The position numbers and the translations under genes are program-made. Under the pieces are notes generated by a model. It saw only the letters and a program-made list of their open reading frames with translations. It had not been told where the DNA came from and made no database searches. A DNA stretch of 64,000 bases from a virus, in UHGV virus genome UHGV-0178594; one strand, given 5' to 3'. Shown piece after piece: positions 973 to 7,421 of the stretch (position 1 is the first letter of the stretch; each line of letters opens with the position of its first letter).

Positions 973-1740
973 TTACCCCATTCTCAGAGAGGTTTCAGTA
1001 ATAATTCGTTTCGCGTCCAGCTCCCAGGCGGTGATCACGTCTGCTATAACACTAATTGCCGTTTGTGCAGCATAAATACGCTCTTCCCCAATTGGGGCTG
1101 AAACATCAGTAAAACTGATGTCTTTAGCATCCTGAATCGCGCAAATTAGCGGGACGGGTACTCGTACCAGCGGGGTTGTTGCTTCAAACTGCGTTCCTGC
1201 CATCAAGCGAAGACGTGCTCCTAGCGAGTTACACATCAGACTCATGGTCGCCTTATCCGTCGCCATTAATGTAACGTCATACGTCAGATTTGCCTGGGTG
1301 TATTCCAGGGCTACTAAAGGCATACCGCTGCCAGGTTCGCAGAAGTGATCACATCTTTTGCGGTCTATCTGCTGGTCATTGTTGATATAGCTGATATCCA
1401 TTGAGCGCGAGATATTAATCAGAGGGAGTGCATCGCGATTAATGTTCGGATTCTCTGGCTTTCTCCCTTGCCCGGCATTAGCACGGCGAACCGCTTTAAG
1501 GAACTCGACCGCGTTATCAAAACGGGCAACATAAACACGCTCCGCTGGTGGGCGACTCAGGAATGATGCAAAGCGCCTTTCTTCTTTTGCTGGTTCCACC
1601 AGCGTTACGTCAGAAAAAATGTCACTGATTAGCGTAGCAAAAGCGTTATCCACTCTTTCCAGACCAGTTGTCTGGAATTTTCCAGTACGCGTTGTCTGCC
1701 ACTCGCCAATGCGGGACAGGAGAGTTTTGTTGGGTGTCAT
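973..1740 (-). CDS. hypothetical protein
   Basis: 255-aa ORF, 4-nt overlap with upstream ORF (operon); no recognisable motif. Confidence 0.55.
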   Translation of the reverse strand: MTPNKTLLSRIGEWQTTRTGKFQTTGLERVDNAFATLISDIFSDVTLVEPAKEERRFASFLSRPPAERVYVARFDNAVEFLKAVRRANAGQGRKPENPNINRDALPLINISRSMDISYINNDQQIDRKRCDHFCEPGSGMPLVALEYTQANLTYDVTLMATDKATMSLMCNSLGARLRLMAGTQFEATTPLVRVPVPLICAIQDAKDISFTDVSAPIGEERIYAAQTAISVIADVITAWELDAKRIITETSLRMG

Positions 1741-2540
1741 TCGATCACTCCGTTTTGAGTGGTATCAAAGTTCCTGGCCGGGATGCAGTAATAAAGGGAG
1801 CCGACGTGTTGTGTTCCGTAGCTGAAGATTCGATGCACGTACCACCAGCGGCGGGCGAGGCCATTCGCCATTTCTTCGTTCCATTCCAGGATTGAACCAA
1901 CAGGTACGTTGTTTGCAGCAATACGCAGGATTAGCACTTCATCAGCAAGACCATCCTGTTCTCCATCGGCATCAATGGCATGAAACGAATCCCTTCCGTC
2001 CGGGTTATCCAGGACGTATACGATTTCCGGTTCCAGATAGGTAAGCTCACGCTGGTTGTTGTCCAGTTGCGTGAAAGACTCTTCACCTGTTTCATCGTTT
2101 ACGACGCCATAGGTGCCATCAGCCGGGCGGTATAAAAGCGCCTCGAACGCGTCAGGGCTTGATTCAATAATGAGCATCCAATCGGCGCGGATCTGGTCGT
2201 TGAACGCTTTATGTCCGTTATATCGGGTTTTAAGCTGCTGGTTTGGTTCTCTGTTAGCGAGCGATGCCGGTAGGGGAGCGATGTCAGGTTCAATCACTTC
2301 CGTAACAGAGTCACCAGCATTATCAGGCCAATTATCATGGCTATTAGATTGGGTGGCGGCGTGCTCTTCCAGAATACTGAATGGCCCTGCACTGACATTC
2401 CCATTTTCCGTTGTGCTTCCTTCATTCGCTTCAACCGTCGTTGTCTCTTCTCTCTGCGTGCTGTCATGTTCTGTTCCCTTTCTCATCAGGCTTGCATCAT
2501 CAGCAAGCCATTCATCAAAACGGCCCATAAGCGTCCTCAA
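1737..2540 (-). CDS. hypothetical protein with acidic low-complexity N-terminus
   Basis: 267-aa ORF, first gene of leftward operon divergent from higB. Confidence 0.55.
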   Translation of the reverse strand: MRTLMGRFDEWLADDASLMRKGTEHDSTQREETTTVEANEGSTTENGNVSAGPFSILEEHAATQSNSHDNWPDNAGDSVTEVIEPDIAPLPASLANREPNQQLKTRYNGHKAFNDQIRADWMLIIESSPDAFEALLYRPADGTYGVVNDETGEESFTQLDNNQRELTYLEPEIVYVLDNPDGRDSFHAIDADGEQDGLADEVLILRIAANNVPVGSILEWNEEMANGLARRWWYVHRIFSYGTQHVGSLYYCIPARNFDTTQNGVIE

Positions 2541-2691
2541 AGGTCGATTTATCAGGTATCGAAAGGAAGATTTTCGGGAGATTGTGATTTTGGATGGAGG
2601 AGGGGAATTGTTATAATATGCACTTGCGCACGGTGCAACGGTGCGCTATCATTATGACATTCATTAATAATCATGGAGGATAAAATGATCG

Positions 2692-2994
2692 ATGAACAAA
2701 AAGATTAACATAAAGAATTTCAGGGATGAGTGGCTTGATGATTTTTTTGAATTTTCAATACCACACAAAAAGATACCTTCTGATATTCAGATTACATTGT
2801 TGCGGAAGCTGGATATTATCAATGCTGCAACTACTTGGAAGGACTTGAGATCACCACCAGGTAATCGGTATGAGGAATTGTCAGGGAAGCTAAACGGCTA
2901 TTCATCAATAAGGGTGAATAAGCAATACAGGTTAATTTTTAAGTGGGTTAACGGAAAGGCCGAGGACTTGTATCTCGACCCTCACAAATACTAA
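2692..2994 (+). CDS. higB: HigB-family toxin (RelE/ParE superfamily mRNA interferase)
   Basis: 100 aa; C-terminal ...YRLIFKWVNGKAEDLYLDPHKY typical of HigB killer proteins; followed by HTH antitoxin. Confidence 0.75.
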   Translation: MNKKINIKNFRDEWLDDFFEFSIPHKKIPSDIQITLLRKLDIINAATTWKDLRSPPGNRYEELSGKLNGYSSIRVNKQYRLIFKWVNGKAEDLYLDPHKY

Positions 2995-3065
2995 AACAAA
3001 TACCCGGCGGATGGGCCGGGTACTGACCAGAGTCCACTTAATACGCACGCTAGTAAGGGCAAAAA

Positions 3066-3404
3066 ATGAAACAGGCAACCAGAAAACCGACGACTGTAGG
3101 TGATATCCTGCTGTACGAATACCTGGAGCCGTTAGAGCTTAAGATCAACGAGTTAGCAGAAATACTTCATGTTCATCGTAACACCGTAAGTGCTCTTGTT
3201 AATAACAATCGTAAGCTAACGATGGATATGGCATATCGCCTGGCAAAAGCATTCGATACTTCTGTAGATTTTTGGATTAATCTTCAGACCGCAGTAGACC
3301 TGTGGGAAGTCGAAAATGATATGCGCGTTCAGGAAGAGTTAAGTCGTATCAATACTGCTGAAAAATTTATTTCTCAGCGGAACCTGAATAAAAAAGCAGC
3401 CTGA
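3066..3404 (+). CDS. higA: HigA antitoxin, XRE-type HTH
   Basis: 112 aa; HTH LAEILHVHRNTVSALVNNNRKLTMDMAYRLAKAF; directly downstream of higB; hairpin terminator follows at ~3428-3452. Confidence 0.75.
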   Translation: MKQATRKPTTVGDILLYEYLEPLELKINELAEILHVHRNTVSALVNNNRKLTMDMAYRLAKAFDTSVDFWINLQTAVDLWEVENDMRVQEELSRINTAEKFISQRNLNKKAA

Positions 3405-3460
3405 TATAGTTAAACACATACAAAAAGCCCACTTAACAAGTGGGCTTTCCTTTGGAATTA

Positions 3461-3820
3461 ATGAACATTAAACCTATCCGTACAGAACAAGATTATGAGG
3501 CCGCACTGCGTGAAGTCGAACCGATGTTCGATAACGAACCGGAAATGAATACTCCGGAAGGTGATTTCTTTGAGGTTATGAGTCTTCTCATTGAGGAGTA
3601 CGAGAAGAAACATTACCCAATTCAGCCACCATCACCTATTGAGGCCATTAAGTTCCGCATGGAACAGCAAGGGCTGACCGTGAAGGATCTGGAACCGGCT
3701 ATTGGTAAATCAAATCGTGTTTACGAGGTGCTAAATGGGACACGAAATTTGACGTTACCTATGATTCGTCGTTTACATTCCCAGTTTGGCATTCCTCTTG
3801 AAAGCCTGGTTGGTGTTTGA
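3461..3820 (+). CDS. HigA-like HTH regulator (E. coli K-12 HigA architecture), no cognate HigB upstream
   Basis: N-terminal domain plus C-terminal HTH (GTRNLTLPMIRRLHSQFGIPLESL) resembling K-12 HigA; start taken at internal ATG (MNIKPIRTEQ). Confidence 0.6.
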   Translation: MNIKPIRTEQDYEAALREVEPMFDNEPEMNTPEGDFFEVMSLLIEEYEKKHYPIQPPSPIEAIKFRMEQQGLTVKDLEPAIGKSNRVYEVLNGTRNLTLPMIRRLHSQFGIPLESLVGV

Positions 3821-3869
3821 GTTTGGCGGTCTGGAAGACCGCCTTCACCAAAAATAAAGATAAGAAGGT

Positions 3870-4619
3870 TTGAATTTTTATATGAGCAAAGATTCATCAT
3901 TAGAAAATAAAGATGAAAATGTCACAGTCAGGAACACAATAGAAGAAGCCATAAGAGACAAGTTATTTAATAAGTTGTTTGCATATGTTGTGGTTTCTTT
4001 TTTAGTCGTTAACTGGCAGGATATTATTATATTATTTAAATCAAAGTACGATATATATACAACATTGTCTATAGTATGGGTTGGTGAGAAATATCACTTT
4101 CCTTATGTTGGCCCCATCATTGTATCTCCGTTTGTGGCTCATTTTGTTATGCCATTTATATATGGAACCACTGCGTCAGTGGTAATGCCTTATATAACAA
4201 TGTATATATCAAAAGCAACAGGCAGGAACTATGCAAGAATTAGATACATTGACTATGAGTTTGATTTAGAAGAGAGGGCAAGAATAAAAGAGTTGCAGAT
4301 CAACTTGAAGCAAAAAGAGAGCAAGCTTTTAAGTCTAGAAAAGCAAACAGAAGATCAATATAAATTATTGTCTGCAATTGAAGAGAAGAAGAGAGAGACT
4401 GAGAGTGCCAGAGTGGCTCTGTATCACGGCATAAAAGTAATTGTCGATGTATATAAAGCAAAAAAGAAAAGAATTTCCACCCAAGAAGATTTTGCCGATT
4501 TATTAAAAGCAATTGAAGAAAGCGATTTTTATAAAGACACTGGATTGTGGGGTATTAATAAACTAATAGATGACGTAGAGAAAATATATGAGTCTCAATC
4601 GACAACAAAGGACAAGTAA
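3870..4619 (+). CDS. membrane protein with two TM helices and long C-terminal coiled coil
   Basis: AT-rich ORF; hydrophobic segments FAYVVVSFLVVNW and PIIVSPFVAHFVMPFIYG, then K/E-rich coiled coil; terminator at 4622-4648. Confidence 0.55.
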   Translation: MNFYMSKDSSLENKDENVTVRNTIEEAIRDKLFNKLFAYVVVSFLVVNWQDIIILFKSKYDIYTTLSIVWVGEKYHFPYVGPIIVSPFVAHFVMPFIYGTTASVVMPYITMYISKATGRNYARIRYIDYEFDLEERARIKELQINLKQKESKLLSLEKQTEDQYKLLSAIEEKKRETESARVALYHGIKVIVDVYKAKKKRISTQEDFADLLKAIEESDFYKDTGLWGINKLIDDVEKIYESQSTTKDK

Positions 4620-4652
4620 TATAAAAGGCGGGATAACCGCCTTTGTTGTAAA

Positions 4653-5849
4653 TTAAGAACCTTTCTTCACATACTCCATAAACATTTTTTCAGCTTGCTC
4701 AGGTGACGTTCCTGTCATGACCAGCGCATCAATGAACGCTTGCTTCTTCAGTGCGAATTGATCGGCAAGGCGTTGCTGAAGCTCCTTGTTTTTCTGTTTC
4801 TCACGTTGCAAGGCTGCTTCTTTTGCTGCTGCCCGTTTTTTCTGTGCATCGGACAACTTTCTGGCCCTGGTCAGCTGGTCACGTAGCTTGTCAATCTTGC
4901 CGTTGTCCTTTGCCAGTTTTGTGCTTAAAGCGGCCTGGCGTTTCTGATAGAGCTTCCATTCACGTTTAGCTGCCTCAACATTCGTTTTGCTGCTACGGTT
5001 TCGATTGAACGCCTTCTCGTCTTCTTTTGTGAAGTGTTTTGTCGTGCGGCGGCGATCGTCACCAAAGGCAACTTGCGTTGCAGCTTTTTGCAGGGCGCGA
5101 GCAATACTCATCTGCCAACTGGCAGACTGTAGTCGTGTCATTGAGTGGATCACATGTTTACAGGCGACGCCTTGCAGCTTAGGGTTGCGAACTTTTGGAT
5201 AGGCGTATTCTTTTGGCGGGGCCAGGGCAAAGTTACCTGCAGTGGCGATGTAGCGATACCAGTATTGATGGCGACCGCAGTCACAATCGAAAGACACTCG
5301 CCCGGCACACAGTGATTTTGTGACTTTCAGGGCTGATTTATCGTCTTCTGCGATGTCATCGACCATCTGATCCCATTCTTCAAAACGTACCCGGACAATG
5401 TGGTGCTGGTGAACGGATATATCGGACGCTTCCACGCGGATATTAATCACATTGTGACGAAGAGATACGGGCGTAGCTCTTTTGATACCAGAACCGTCGT
5501 CTACGGCGTTATTTGCTCGCTTAATATCGATAGCCTGGCTGGACGCTACCAGTTGTGCGTATGTAATGCCAGCCGTCTTGCTGTCGTATTTTTCGCGAGC
5601 TTTGCTTCGCAGCTTTTCGAAGCCTTTCAGATCGTCACGCGTAAAGAACGTGCCGCCTTTCTTTTTCCCCAGCTTAAGAATGTCTTCGGCTGATTTATTC
5701 CTAAGCCTGCCCGGCGTGAGTGTCCTGTTCGCCTGGCGGCGTTTGCGGTTTTGCTCTTTCCTGATGAGTTCAAATACGCGTGTGAAATCCTTAGAGGACA
5801 GGCCGTCAGTGATATATCGCCCGTCCTGATTTTTCAGGAAGTCAGGCAT
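4653..5849 (-). CDS. SWIM-type zinc-finger protein with basic coiled-coil C-terminus
   Basis: 398 aa; CxC...CxH motif (FDCDCGRHQYWYRY...GVACKHVIH); K/R/Q-rich tail. Confidence 0.55.
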   Translation of the reverse strand: MPDFLKNQDGRYITDGLSSKDFTRVFELIRKEQNRKRRQANRTLTPGRLRNKSAEDILKLGKKKGGTFFTRDDLKGFEKLRSKAREKYDSKTAGITYAQLVASSQAIDIKRANNAVDDGSGIKRATPVSLRHNVINIRVEASDISVHQHHIVRVRFEEWDQMVDDIAEDDKSALKVTKSLCAGRVSFDCDCGRHQYWYRYIATAGNFALAPPKEYAYPKVRNPKLQGVACKHVIHSMTRLQSASWQMSIARALQKAATQVAFGDDRRRTTKHFTKEDEKAFNRNRSSKTNVEAAKREWKLYQKRQAALSTKLAKDNGKIDKLRDQLTRARKLSDAQKKRAAAKEAALQREKQKNKELQQRLADQFALKKQAFIDALVMTGTSPEQAEKMFMEYVKKGS

Positions 5850-6171
5850 TTTCTATCTCCGGTGCCGAGCCAGCGTAATCGCGAATCTTGTTTCTTAGCC
5901 ATGCTGCGTCAGGAAGAGTTAACGTTGTCCCTACCGGCATTTCTTCCATTTCTGACTCATGGCCCACCAGCACGCGAAATACCCAGCGCAAATCAGCGTT
6001 GCCATAGGCGCGATAGGCCGCCAGGTCTGAGCGATAAACCTCATCAATTTTTATCGTGTACTGGAAATTATCGGAGTGATACTCCGATACCCGCTTGATC
6101 ATCTCCTGATGGAATAGTGCGCGCAGCACATCGTCTTCAATGCATCGATCGTCGAGCCTGCTGTAACTCAT
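5842..6171 (-). CDS. hypothetical protein
   Basis: 109-aa ORF overlapping start of downstream SWIM gene by 8 nt (translational coupling). Confidence 0.45.
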   Translation of the reverse strand: MSYSRLDDRCIEDDVLRALFHQEMIKRVSEYHSDNFQYTIKIDEVYRSDLAAYRAYGNADLRWVFRVLVGHESEMEEMPVGTTLTLPDAAWLRNKIRDYAGSAPEIENA

Positions 6172-6502
6172 AACAGTTCCTCACAGTCATAACCTGGGGG
6201 GAACTGTATGCAGGGTGTGAAATGCGAGAAACAGACAGGCCACCAGTTCAGGGGGATGTGGTTCATAAATCCCCTCACTGGTGACAAGTGACTTTCATTA
6301 ATCTTTATGCGGGGGCCAGCTTCATTGTTTGCTGGCTGTAGATTAAAAATTAAATAGTGTGAATGACATGGACGTTATTCTCGAATTGTTAAAGCTAATT
6401 GTTCTGTTTATGAACGCCTCGTTGACCACGCAAATACTGGCGTTAGTATTTTTGTTACTCTTCTACCTGGTATTAAGGGAGTTAACAAAGCTACTGAGTT
6501 GA

Positions 6503-7156
6503 TTAAAGTATCACCGTATCTTCATCAATTACTTGCCCGGCCAGCGATTTTGGTTGGGTATTTCCTGCTTTAGCTTTTTGATCGCTGATAATGGACAGGA
6601 ACGAGGCCATTATCCCTGCTTTGTTTTCTTTCTCTACCGCTCCTGTCATTTGTTTCAGGTAATCCGCGCTGGCAACATTATGGTATACCGTTGCATAGCA
6701 GCACAGAATCATCAGGATGTGCTCTGGTCGGATATCTTGCCAGTTAACTCGATAAACCTCTTCACCGTTGCCGTTGTATTCGGTATCGACGATAGAGTCG
6801 GGGATCTCAAATGCCCCTTTGTTCTTGTCAGGCAGGGATAGCAGCCTTTGTAGTTTCAGCTCCCGGTATCTCTCCATGCCGACAATGATCGCTGCTCTGC
6901 CGTCGGCGTGCCGTGTTTTTAATGTTACCTGGCTGGCACCTGTACCGGCTGAAATGGTTGGCGTGATTTCGTCAACCAGCACCTTAAATTCACTTTTACG
7001 CAGCTCGGCAATTGCTGGTGGAATTTTTCGTTTTTGTTCAATAGCAGATGCAGGGAGCGGCTTTACTTTGTCAATTACAAGCGCGCCGTCTTTCAGGACT
7101 GCCGTAGCCATCAGCGGCTTGTTAGTAGAAAGACTGAATATTGCGATCTTTTGCAT
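6503..7156 (-). CDS. hypothetical protein
   Basis: 217-aa ORF; hairpin with U-run (minus-strand reading) at ~7178-7205. Confidence 0.5.
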   Translation of the reverse strand: MQKIAIFSLSTNKPLMATAVLKDGALVIDKVKPLPASAIEQKRKIPPAIAELRKSEFKVLVDEITPTISAGTGASQVTLKTRHADGRAAIIVGMERYRELKLQRLLSLPDKNKGAFEIPDSIVDTEYNGNGEEVYRVNWQDIRPEHILMILCCYATVYHNVASADYLKQMTGAVEKENKAGIMASFLSIISDQKAKAGNTQPKSLAGQVIDEDTVIL

Positions 7157-7421
7157 GGCTTTTACTCCACGATAGCAGGCACAAAAAAAGGCCGCACATG
7201 GCGGCCTGCTTTGGCGTTATGACTCCCTACCGCGCATCGGCTGAAAGTTAGTCGTCAAAAGAACCTTCAACGGGAGCCGTTTGCGCAATGGATTTTGTCC
7301 AGATTGTGATTTCCAGAATAGTGTCAACAATTTTTTTGAATTTTTTATTCGCGCTGAATTTGGCCTAGGTCATTTTGGCGTAGATGTTTGCTTTTGTAAC
7401 ATAAAACTTCAGTTTTTTTAC

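Follow-up and report, generated by a model that had tools for sequence, protein, structure and literature searches.

Genes 26 and 25 at the locus

We analyzed a 64,000-nucleotide (nt) stretch of the virus genome UHGV-0178594 (the window), in which two overlapping open reading frames on the minus strand, between positions 4653 and 6171, are by sequence comparison orthologs of genes 26 and 25 of phage P1. The upstream frame (5842..6171) encodes a 109-amino acid (aa) protein corresponding to T4 gp53-like baseplate plug/wedge proteins. The downstream frame (4653..5849) encodes a 398-aa protein, here called gp25, corresponding to the 'tail stability' protein of P1-like phages. The DNA of this region shares 87% identity with Escherichia phage D6 and 99.9% with a 92 kb phage-plasmid of E. 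coli; the stretch, as judged from its sequence, therefore derives from a P1/D6-like phage-plasmid.

In a search of PHROGs, the 398-aa protein matched phrog_1722 ('tail protein') with residues 2-396 (E 3.3e-195). It shares 96% identity with D6 orf74, annotated as 'tail protein, similar to P1 gene 25', and 56.7% identity with P1 gp25 over aa 1-334 (tblastn against AF234172, E 1e-112). No Pfam family matched the window protein at E ≤ 0.1, and NCBIfam gave no match to it. The earlier note on this DNA had named a confident assignment to a known phage structural family as grounds against its reading. The features that it described are all present, but its interpretation is supported in part only, as the protein is confidently assigned to phrog_1722 and P1 gene 25, a family with a structural annotation. 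The 109-aa protein matched phrog_1269 ('baseplate wedge subunit', E 1e-35) and, with residues 3-100, the P1 Gp26 chains 9ay5_S and 9vzk (phmmer, E 2.4e-18); its D6 counterpart is orf75 ('baseplate, similar to P1 gene 26'). In two P1 cryo-electron microscopy (cryo-EM) studies, Gp26 is assigned to the baseplate as a T4 gp53-like plug, and the 109-aa protein is an ordinary ortholog with no notable difference from T4 gp53 or the P1 gp26 plug.

The window gp25 resembles P1 gp25 and D6 orf74 in its full-length orthology, its length class, its Cys/His motif and the place of its gene, which comes behind gene 26 among the late tail genes of the operon; over its C-terminal ~64 residues it departs from the P1 type. 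The D6-like lineage further differs from P1 in having a 2.1 kb cassette and a terminator that part gene 25 from gene 7. Names and descriptions thus exist for both genes, and gene 25, in itself ordinary, belongs to a catalogued family. The present analysis adds an assignment of its core to the SWIM type with an insert, the polybasic character of the whole family, and the linkage of genes 26, 25 and 7; these family traits provide handles for experiments.

The stop codon of gene 26 and the start codon of gene 25 overlap within 8 nt (ATGCCTGA, 5842..5849, minus strand), and a GGAG ribosome-binding site precedes the gene 25 ATG. Translational coupling of the two genes is predicted from this overlap. 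To place the pair in a wider context, we used 80 viral contigs encoding gp25 relatives, which were found with a sub-alignment of the family, and collapsed near-duplicate loci into 25 clusters. A gp26-like open reading frame lay upstream on the same strand in 79 of the 80 loci. Of the 77 loci having both frames, 63 had a gap of -8 to +12 nt from gene 26 to gene 25; the two genes were adjacent in 21 of 24 non-redundant clusters. The coupling to a small upstream gene that the earlier note had described is thus seen in the overlap itself and in the conserved pairing among relatives.

The linkage extends downstream. Genes 25 and 7 were adjacent in 20 of 21 clusters, typically overlapping by 4 nt, and the gap between them was at most 15 nt in 65 of 71 loci. 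Across the 25 clusters, gp7-, gp24-, gp6- and gp5-like genes follow gene 25, so that the order 26-25-7-24-6-5 is conserved, with overlaps of stop and start codons on both sides of gene 25. In the window, genes 7 and 24 lie downstream of gene 25 on the same strand, beyond the inserted cassette. The gene 7 ortholog (1737..2529, minus strand; phrog_1906; D6 orf69, 'similar to P1 gene 7'), usually the immediate downstream neighbor of gene 25, encodes the neck stopper, a placement made for P1 gp7 in the P1 whole-virion cryo-EM study. Upstream of gene 26 in the window is an ortholog of the maturation control gene mat (6503..7156, minus strand; phrog_1837; D6 orf78, 'similar to P1 gene mat'), and mat-like frames were found upstream in 41 of the 80 viral loci.

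The pairing of genes 26 and 25 extends to very distant relatives and also survives relocation to a head/neck gene context. In Acinetobacter phage ABMM1 (OQ471969, a 76 kb myophage; locus L084, 4299-6247), a phrog_1269 gene, a gp25-like gene (phrog_4315) and a phrog_4597 gene lie between the large terminase and major capsid genes and not among the baseplate genes. The gp25 homolog of Xanthomonas phage Rb1 likewise keeps a phrog_4597 neighbor. We considered whether the frames downstream of the ABMM1 and Rb1 homologs are gp7-like and rejected this, as no likeness was detectable; they belong to phrog_4597, a family of unknown function.

The Cys/His core and the charge of gp25

In the middle of the 398-aa protein, the translation contains a putative SWIM-like Cys2-Cys-His finger, C189-D-C191 ... 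C230-K-H232 (5154..5285, minus strand), whose halves are split by a conserved 38-residue insert (YWYRY...PKVRNP...G). All four prospective ligands were invariant in an alignment of 34 sequences drawn from 296 homologs and reaching down to 45% identity, and they were again invariant in 60 diverse members reaching down to 22% identity. Besides the start Met, the invariant columns of the latter set were G94, C189, C191, E214, P218, N222, G227, C230, K231 and H232. A profile search of 1.84 billion cluster representatives retrieved 646 gp25 relatives at E ≤ 0.001. The pattern C.C.{36-43}C.H was present in 141 of 149 among the 50%-cluster representatives listed; the eight sequences lacking it are 93-230 aa long, and five of these match only profile regions outside the motif. 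Segment 185-240 is clearly the most conserved part of the protein, with a mean entropy of 1.42 bits compared with 2.4-3.0 elsewhere. At the level of sequence, conservation of the Cys/His motif is far beyond chance.

Several lines of evidence connect this core to the SWIM domain. Pfam SWIM (PF04434) was the only Pfam family to recur among the 60 members, matching 11 of them at E ≤ 1 (best E 0.0024), and the matches that could be viewed overlie the motif (residues 190-238 of P0233 and 232-245 of P0213). In a confident AlphaFold2 model of the 398-aa protein (predicted local distance difference test score 82.6, predicted template modelling score 0.73), C189 ends a strand, C191 precedes a helix (192-205) that is followed by a long loop, and C230-K-H232 begins a further helix (231-240). 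A Foldseek search against viral models (BFVD) recovered 'SWIM-type domain-containing' proteins of phages Motura and BcepSauron with probabilities of at least 0.97. Canonical SWIM domains have a spacing of ~6-25 residues between CxC and CxH. Compared with the domain as defined in PF04434 and PROSITE and as found in ZSWIM8, Shu2 and the Motura and BcepSauron proteins, the gp25 core has an extra helix-plus-loop insert of 36-43 residues, and the polybasic helical regions flanking the core are without counterpart in SWIM proteins. The sub-threshold scores of the Pfam SWIM model can be attributed to this conserved insert splitting the finger. From the sequences and the model, we consider it moderately supported that the gp25 core is a SWIM-type finger with a family-specific insert of 36-43 residues. 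SWIM is absent from the public names of the family members that we looked up, and from the P1 papers.

An alternative is that the Cys/His residues bind no metal and form, for instance, disulfides or a purely structural motif, in which case SWIM would be a misnomer. The long spacing between the two halves, outside the range of canonical SWIM domains, and the sub-threshold Pfam match are what such a reading would predict. We nevertheless find it highly improbable: the protein is cytoplasmic, the ligands persist through 60 diverse members and nearly all listed representatives, the CKH triplet of the AlphaFold2 model sits at a helix N-terminus as in SWIM, and two independent fold searches recovered SWIM proteins. 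The finger predicted in the earlier note was thus borne out in its CxC...CxH pattern and its invariance; Pfam SWIM stayed below its threshold. The profile and structure searches that the same note had proposed as a check yielded the phrog_1722 family assignment and the 'SWIM-type' phage proteins found by Foldseek.

The second characteristic of gp25 is its charge. The window protein has a net charge of +36 and an isoelectric point (pI) of 10.07, and the excess of basic residues is spread over its whole length. The N-terminal region (aa 1-90; 5580..5849, minus strand) is mostly helical, with predicted helices at 19-39 and 71-87, a net charge of +12 and a pI of 10.4; in the 34-homolog alignment its conserved residues were G10, R11, F22, F26, R37, T45, P46 and G61. 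A beta/alpha domain (aa 91-184; 5298..5579, minus strand) lies ahead of the finger, and the core has a net charge of +7. The C-terminal third (aa 263-398; 4656..5063, minus strand) is polybasic, fast-evolving and predicted to be all-helical (helices 291-314, 318-331, 334-378 and 383-397), with 26% K+R, 48% K/R/Q/A, a net charge of +17 and a pI of 10.2.

Within the family, the C-terminal third varies in both sequence and length, while pI exceeds 9 in 97% of 128 family representatives. A net charge of about +30 is kept across the family on regions that are otherwise free in sequence, and the family is, as calculated from sequence, uniformly polybasic. The earlier note had limited this feature to a highly basic coiled-coil tail. 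The tail is indeed basic and predicted to be helical, the support extending to helices only; the basicity, however, spans the whole protein. Nucleic-acid binding, which the same note had raised, is suggested by the charge of gp25. The family, which comprises ~650 cluster representatives, can accordingly be described by a SWIM-like Cys2-Cys-His site with an insert, by its polybasic composition and by a gene position between those of the plug and the stopper.

The role of gp25 in P1-like phages

P1 is the classic phage of transduction, and resistance genes are among the cargo that P1-like phage-plasmids spread. Genes 25 and 26 of P1 are listed as 'known essentials' on the basis of amber mutants (PMC10695390). 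Gene 26 carries the label of baseplate nucleation; gene 25 is labelled 'tail stability', a label common to gp7 and, in part, to the terminator gp24. When genes 25 and 26 were targeted by CRISPR interference, plating fell only ~10-fold (efficiency of plating 0.11), and the knockdown was non-polar on genes 7, 24, 6 and 5, which the authors describe as an unexplained contradiction (PMC10695390). In purified P1 virions, gp25 was detected using liquid chromatography coupled to tandem mass spectrometry (LC-MS/MS) with 2 peptides and 8.4% coverage (PMC9024508), a signal no weaker than those of gp7 or PmgG, each present in six copies per virion (PMC9024508; cryo-EM). In the same study, HHpred returned 'None >50%' for gp25, and the authors gave it no clear structural role, without deciding between a structural protein and a cofactor of assembly (PMC9024508, Gonzales et al. 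2022).

The structural work on P1 places gp7, gp24 and gp26 in cryo-EM models. The tail-baseplate preprint lists ten baseplate proteins, gp25 not among them, and the whole-virion paper nowhere mentions gp25. Our sequence and profile searches of the PDB with the full protein, the 60-member alignment and the core gave spurious matches only. Since gp25 is in neither P1 model, the structural label of gp25 itself is weak, and 'phage tail protein', its name in databases, may claim more than the data warrant. Two near-complete models leave gp25 among the very few essential proteins of P1 morphogenesis that have neither a place in the particle nor a mechanism.

One way to read these data is that gp25 is an ordered structural subunit of the tail or baseplate, located in a part that cryo-EM did not resolve, such as the fibre attachment, the tripod or the wedge periphery. 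Density that was blurred or left unmodelled is described in both cryo-EM studies for the baseplate rim, fibres, tripod and tape measure, and the PHROG and NCBI names ('phage tail protein'), the location of gene 25 inside a structural operon and the LC-MS/MS detection in virions would all fit. We consider this quite unlikely, since the name comes only from a genetic phenotype, HHpred found no structural relative above its 50% mark, and the authors attributed the densities that they could not resolve to UpfB, gpR/gp16, Sit and the fibres. In addition, lattice proteins of tails do not typically combine a pI of 10 with a zinc finger.

We favor a different explanation, to which we give an even chance of being correct: gp25, the ortholog of P1 gene 25, would be a low-copy or transient morphogenesis accessory factor with a SWIM-type core and polybasic helices. 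We regard it as an accessory factor and not a lattice subunit because it is conserved, essential and co-translated, has a constrained SWIM-like core and a conserved charge, and is detectable in virions yet absent from their ordered parts. Its LC-MS/MS signal, similar to those of gp7 and PmgG, speaks for a low copy number. Synthesis of the protein would keep pace with that of the plug gp26 and of the neck stopper gp7, and it would not be a repeating building block of the tail. Its zinc-stabilized core would dock onto a partner protein while the polybasic helices grip an acidic surface, and together these would let tails be completed or capped, so that they stay extended until head joining. We read the core as a docking module because the SWIM domains of ZSWIM8, Shu2 and MEKK1 are protein-interaction modules. 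Likewise, because the 'tail stability' label is common to the stopper gp7 and partly to gp24, the step concerned would be tail completion or head joining and not baseplate nucleation. Our confidence in this mechanistic part (docking and a completion step) is moderate to low; the identity of gp25, the conservation of its motif, its charge and its gene order and overlap are shown by the sequences, whereas we infer zinc binding, the partner and the assembly step.

An analogy to the non-structural baseplate assembly cofactors of the T4 gp26/gp51 type was drawn by Gonzales et al. 2022 (PMC9024508). Like these, gp25 is needed for tails and is encoded among baseplate genes, and neither has been found as an ordered virion subunit; gp25, in contrast, is weakly detected in purified virions.

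Several points weigh against an accessory factor that docks through a SWIM-type finger. The gathering score of Pfam SWIM (19.6) was never reached among the 60 members, two individually scored matches giving 10.4-10.9 bits, and the zinc binding of the finger is putative. Protein docking alone accounts less well than nucleic-acid binding for the net charge of about +30 that the family conserves. The detection of gp25 in CsCl-purified virions speaks against a purely transient chaperone. Finally, the sense of 'tail stability' is taken from secondary citations.

Charge and virion association also invite comparison with T4 gp2. By this analogy, which is speculative and forms the main alternative to an accessory factor, gp25 would be a virion-internal DNA-binding protein of head completion or ejection, functionally analogous to gp2. 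A few copies would sit at the end of the DNA, within the neck channel or the lumen of the tube, and would pass into the cell together with it. The two proteins are alike in size class and in extreme basicity (net +36 and pI 10.07 for gp25, net +29 and pI 10.12 for T4 gp2), and both are encoded in clusters with genes for a gp53-type wedge/plug, a head-closure or stopper protein, a terminator and hub/spike proteins. The T4 cluster comprises gp3 (terminator), gp2, gp4 (head closure), gp53 and gp5, and the P1 cluster gp24 (terminator), gp25, gp7 (stopper), gp26 (gp53-like), gp6 and gp5; after equivalents are paired, gp25 and T4 gp2 are the only unmatched members. A polybasic protein with a zinc finger, found in purified virions yet invisible to symmetric cryo-EM, would suit such a role, as would the phenotype label common to the stopper gp7 and the location of the ABMM1 pair between terminase and capsid genes.

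Despite these parallels, we consider a gp2-like role unlikely. Homology to T4 gp2 was rejected, as alignment of the 60-member alignment with gp2 in hhalign gave a probability of 0.2% (E 0.27). T4 gp2 has neither cysteines nor a zinc finger, and its gene is oriented divergently from gp53. The tight, conserved coupling of gene 25 to the baseplate plug gene would be left unexplained, and descriptions of the P1 phenotype speak of defective tails and not of a head or post-injection defect.

In an extended form, which is decidedly improbable, gp25 would act like T4 gp2 or Mu N, as a polybasic zinc-finger protein that binds DNA ends, travels with P1 DNA, lies asymmetrically in the neck or tube lumen, shields injected linear DNA from exonucleases and holds the ends of abortively transduced DNA. 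We know of no identification of the protein that joins the ends of abortively transduced P1 DNA; if gp25 did act in a gp2-like manner, it would be a candidate. That a protein joins these ends is stated in a report cited in PMC8593670.

The gene 26 leader and the inserted cassette

The accessory-factor reading assigns gp25 to morphogenesis. A further possibility is that gp25 is a nucleic-acid-binding regulator of late genes or of the translation of its own operon, for which its basic charge and zinc finger would be suited. Its frequent upstream neighbor mat is named for 'maturation control', and a distant homolog in Xanthomonas phage Rb1 is annotated as a nucleoid-associated regulator of the MvaT type. 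In the D6-like lineage, moreover, gene 26 is preceded by a structured leader in which the ribosome-binding site is sequestered. We give very little credence to this possibility, however, because the phenotype is limited to tails and not pleiotropic, virions contain detectable gp25, only the closest relatives have the leader hairpin, and the MvaT name looks like an automatic mis-transfer. Pfam models for H-NS, MvaT and helix-turn-helix (HTH) domains gave no matches in the 60 members; for H-NS/MvaT, the window protein was likewise without a match in Pfam and in NCBIfam.

The Rb1 homolog (PQ569993; locus L083, 4800-5879) contains the full CDCERH...GVACKH motif and was deposited as 'transcriptional regulator MvaT / nucleoid associated protein'. 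As an H-NS/MvaT domain is undetectable anywhere in the family, this name was probably given in error on account of the basic tail.

The leader, or intergenic region, upstream of gene 26 spans 6172..6502 on the minus strand, and a promoter search of it found none. A 151-nt segment of the gene 26 leader (6150-6300, minus strand) folds with -53.2 kcal/mol (z -4.2), and none of 200 shuffled sequences was as stable. At the 3' end of the leader, a hairpin at 6173-6207 (ACAGUUCC...GGAACUGU) pairs the Shine-Dalgarno sequence of gene 26. This hairpin is kept only in the closest D6-like loci, among which one compensatory change from C:G to A:U was seen (L048), and it may exert translational control over the 26-25 pair. 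Rfam gave no matches within 3800-7400. Also upstream of gene 26 is a near-perfect 17-nt palindrome, TCACTTGTCACCAGTGA, at 6275-6291. We ruled it out as a general Lpa late-promoter box, as it occurs as a single copy in the window.

On the other side of gene 25, a low-GC cassette (2541..4652, plus strand), delimited by its GC content and the D6 annotation, lies between genes 7 and 25. It is 2.1 kb long, with a GC content of 0.384 compared with 0.49-0.50 in the flanking tail genes. Its members, all on the plus strand, are a RelE-like toxin gene (2692-2994), a HigA-like HTH gene (3066-3404), a second HTH gene encoding 126 aa (3440-3820) and orf73 (3870..4619). The last is convergent with gene 25, has a GC content of 0.327 and encodes a membrane/coiled-coil protein with two hydrophobic segments (phrog_8191, function unknown). 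The 126-aa HTH protein matched PADLOC PD-Lambda-2_B (E 2.5e-43) at profile positions 1-119 of 402 only; it corresponds to a stand-alone N-terminal module of a defence-system component, situated beside a toxin-antitoxin pair. PADLOC gave no match for gp25, mat or orf73.

The D6-like cluster, which includes the window, was the only one in which all members have an insert between genes 25 and 7 (441-2156 nt). Inserts of this size range occurred at the junction in six loci, and the 25/7 junction therefore has the look of a hot spot for morons.

The 33-nt gap between the stop codons of gene 25 and orf73 contains a hairpin terminator, AAAGGCGG-N5-CCGCCTTT (4624..4644, both strands). It folds with -15.4 kcal/mol on the plus strand (z -4.5) and -11.7 kcal/mol on the minus strand (z -3.1), and a U-rich tract follows it on each strand; a scan for terminator patterns marked it on the minus strand only. 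The convergent membrane gene and shared terminator described in the earlier note are thus present. They reflect a lineage-specific insertion, however, and not a functional pairing: since both stem from the moron insertion in the D6-like lineage, we place them outside the gp25 module.

With a terminator after gene 25, genes 7-24-6-5 would need their own promoter in the D6-like lineage. Promoter searches for gene 26 and gene 7 gave none that was convincing, and a simple sigma-70 scan returned no matches on the minus strand upstream of gene 7. In the segment upstream of gene 7 (2540-2660, minus strand), a TATTAT box comes after an inverted repeat, GCGCAC-N9-GTGCGC. Two further terminator-like hairpins were seen on the minus strand. 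One, at 2999-3024, has a 10 bp stem with 6 GC pairs and lies between, and antisense to, the RelE-like and HigA-like genes. The other, at 7189-7207 (AGGCCGC...GCGGCCT followed by T7), is just upstream of mat.

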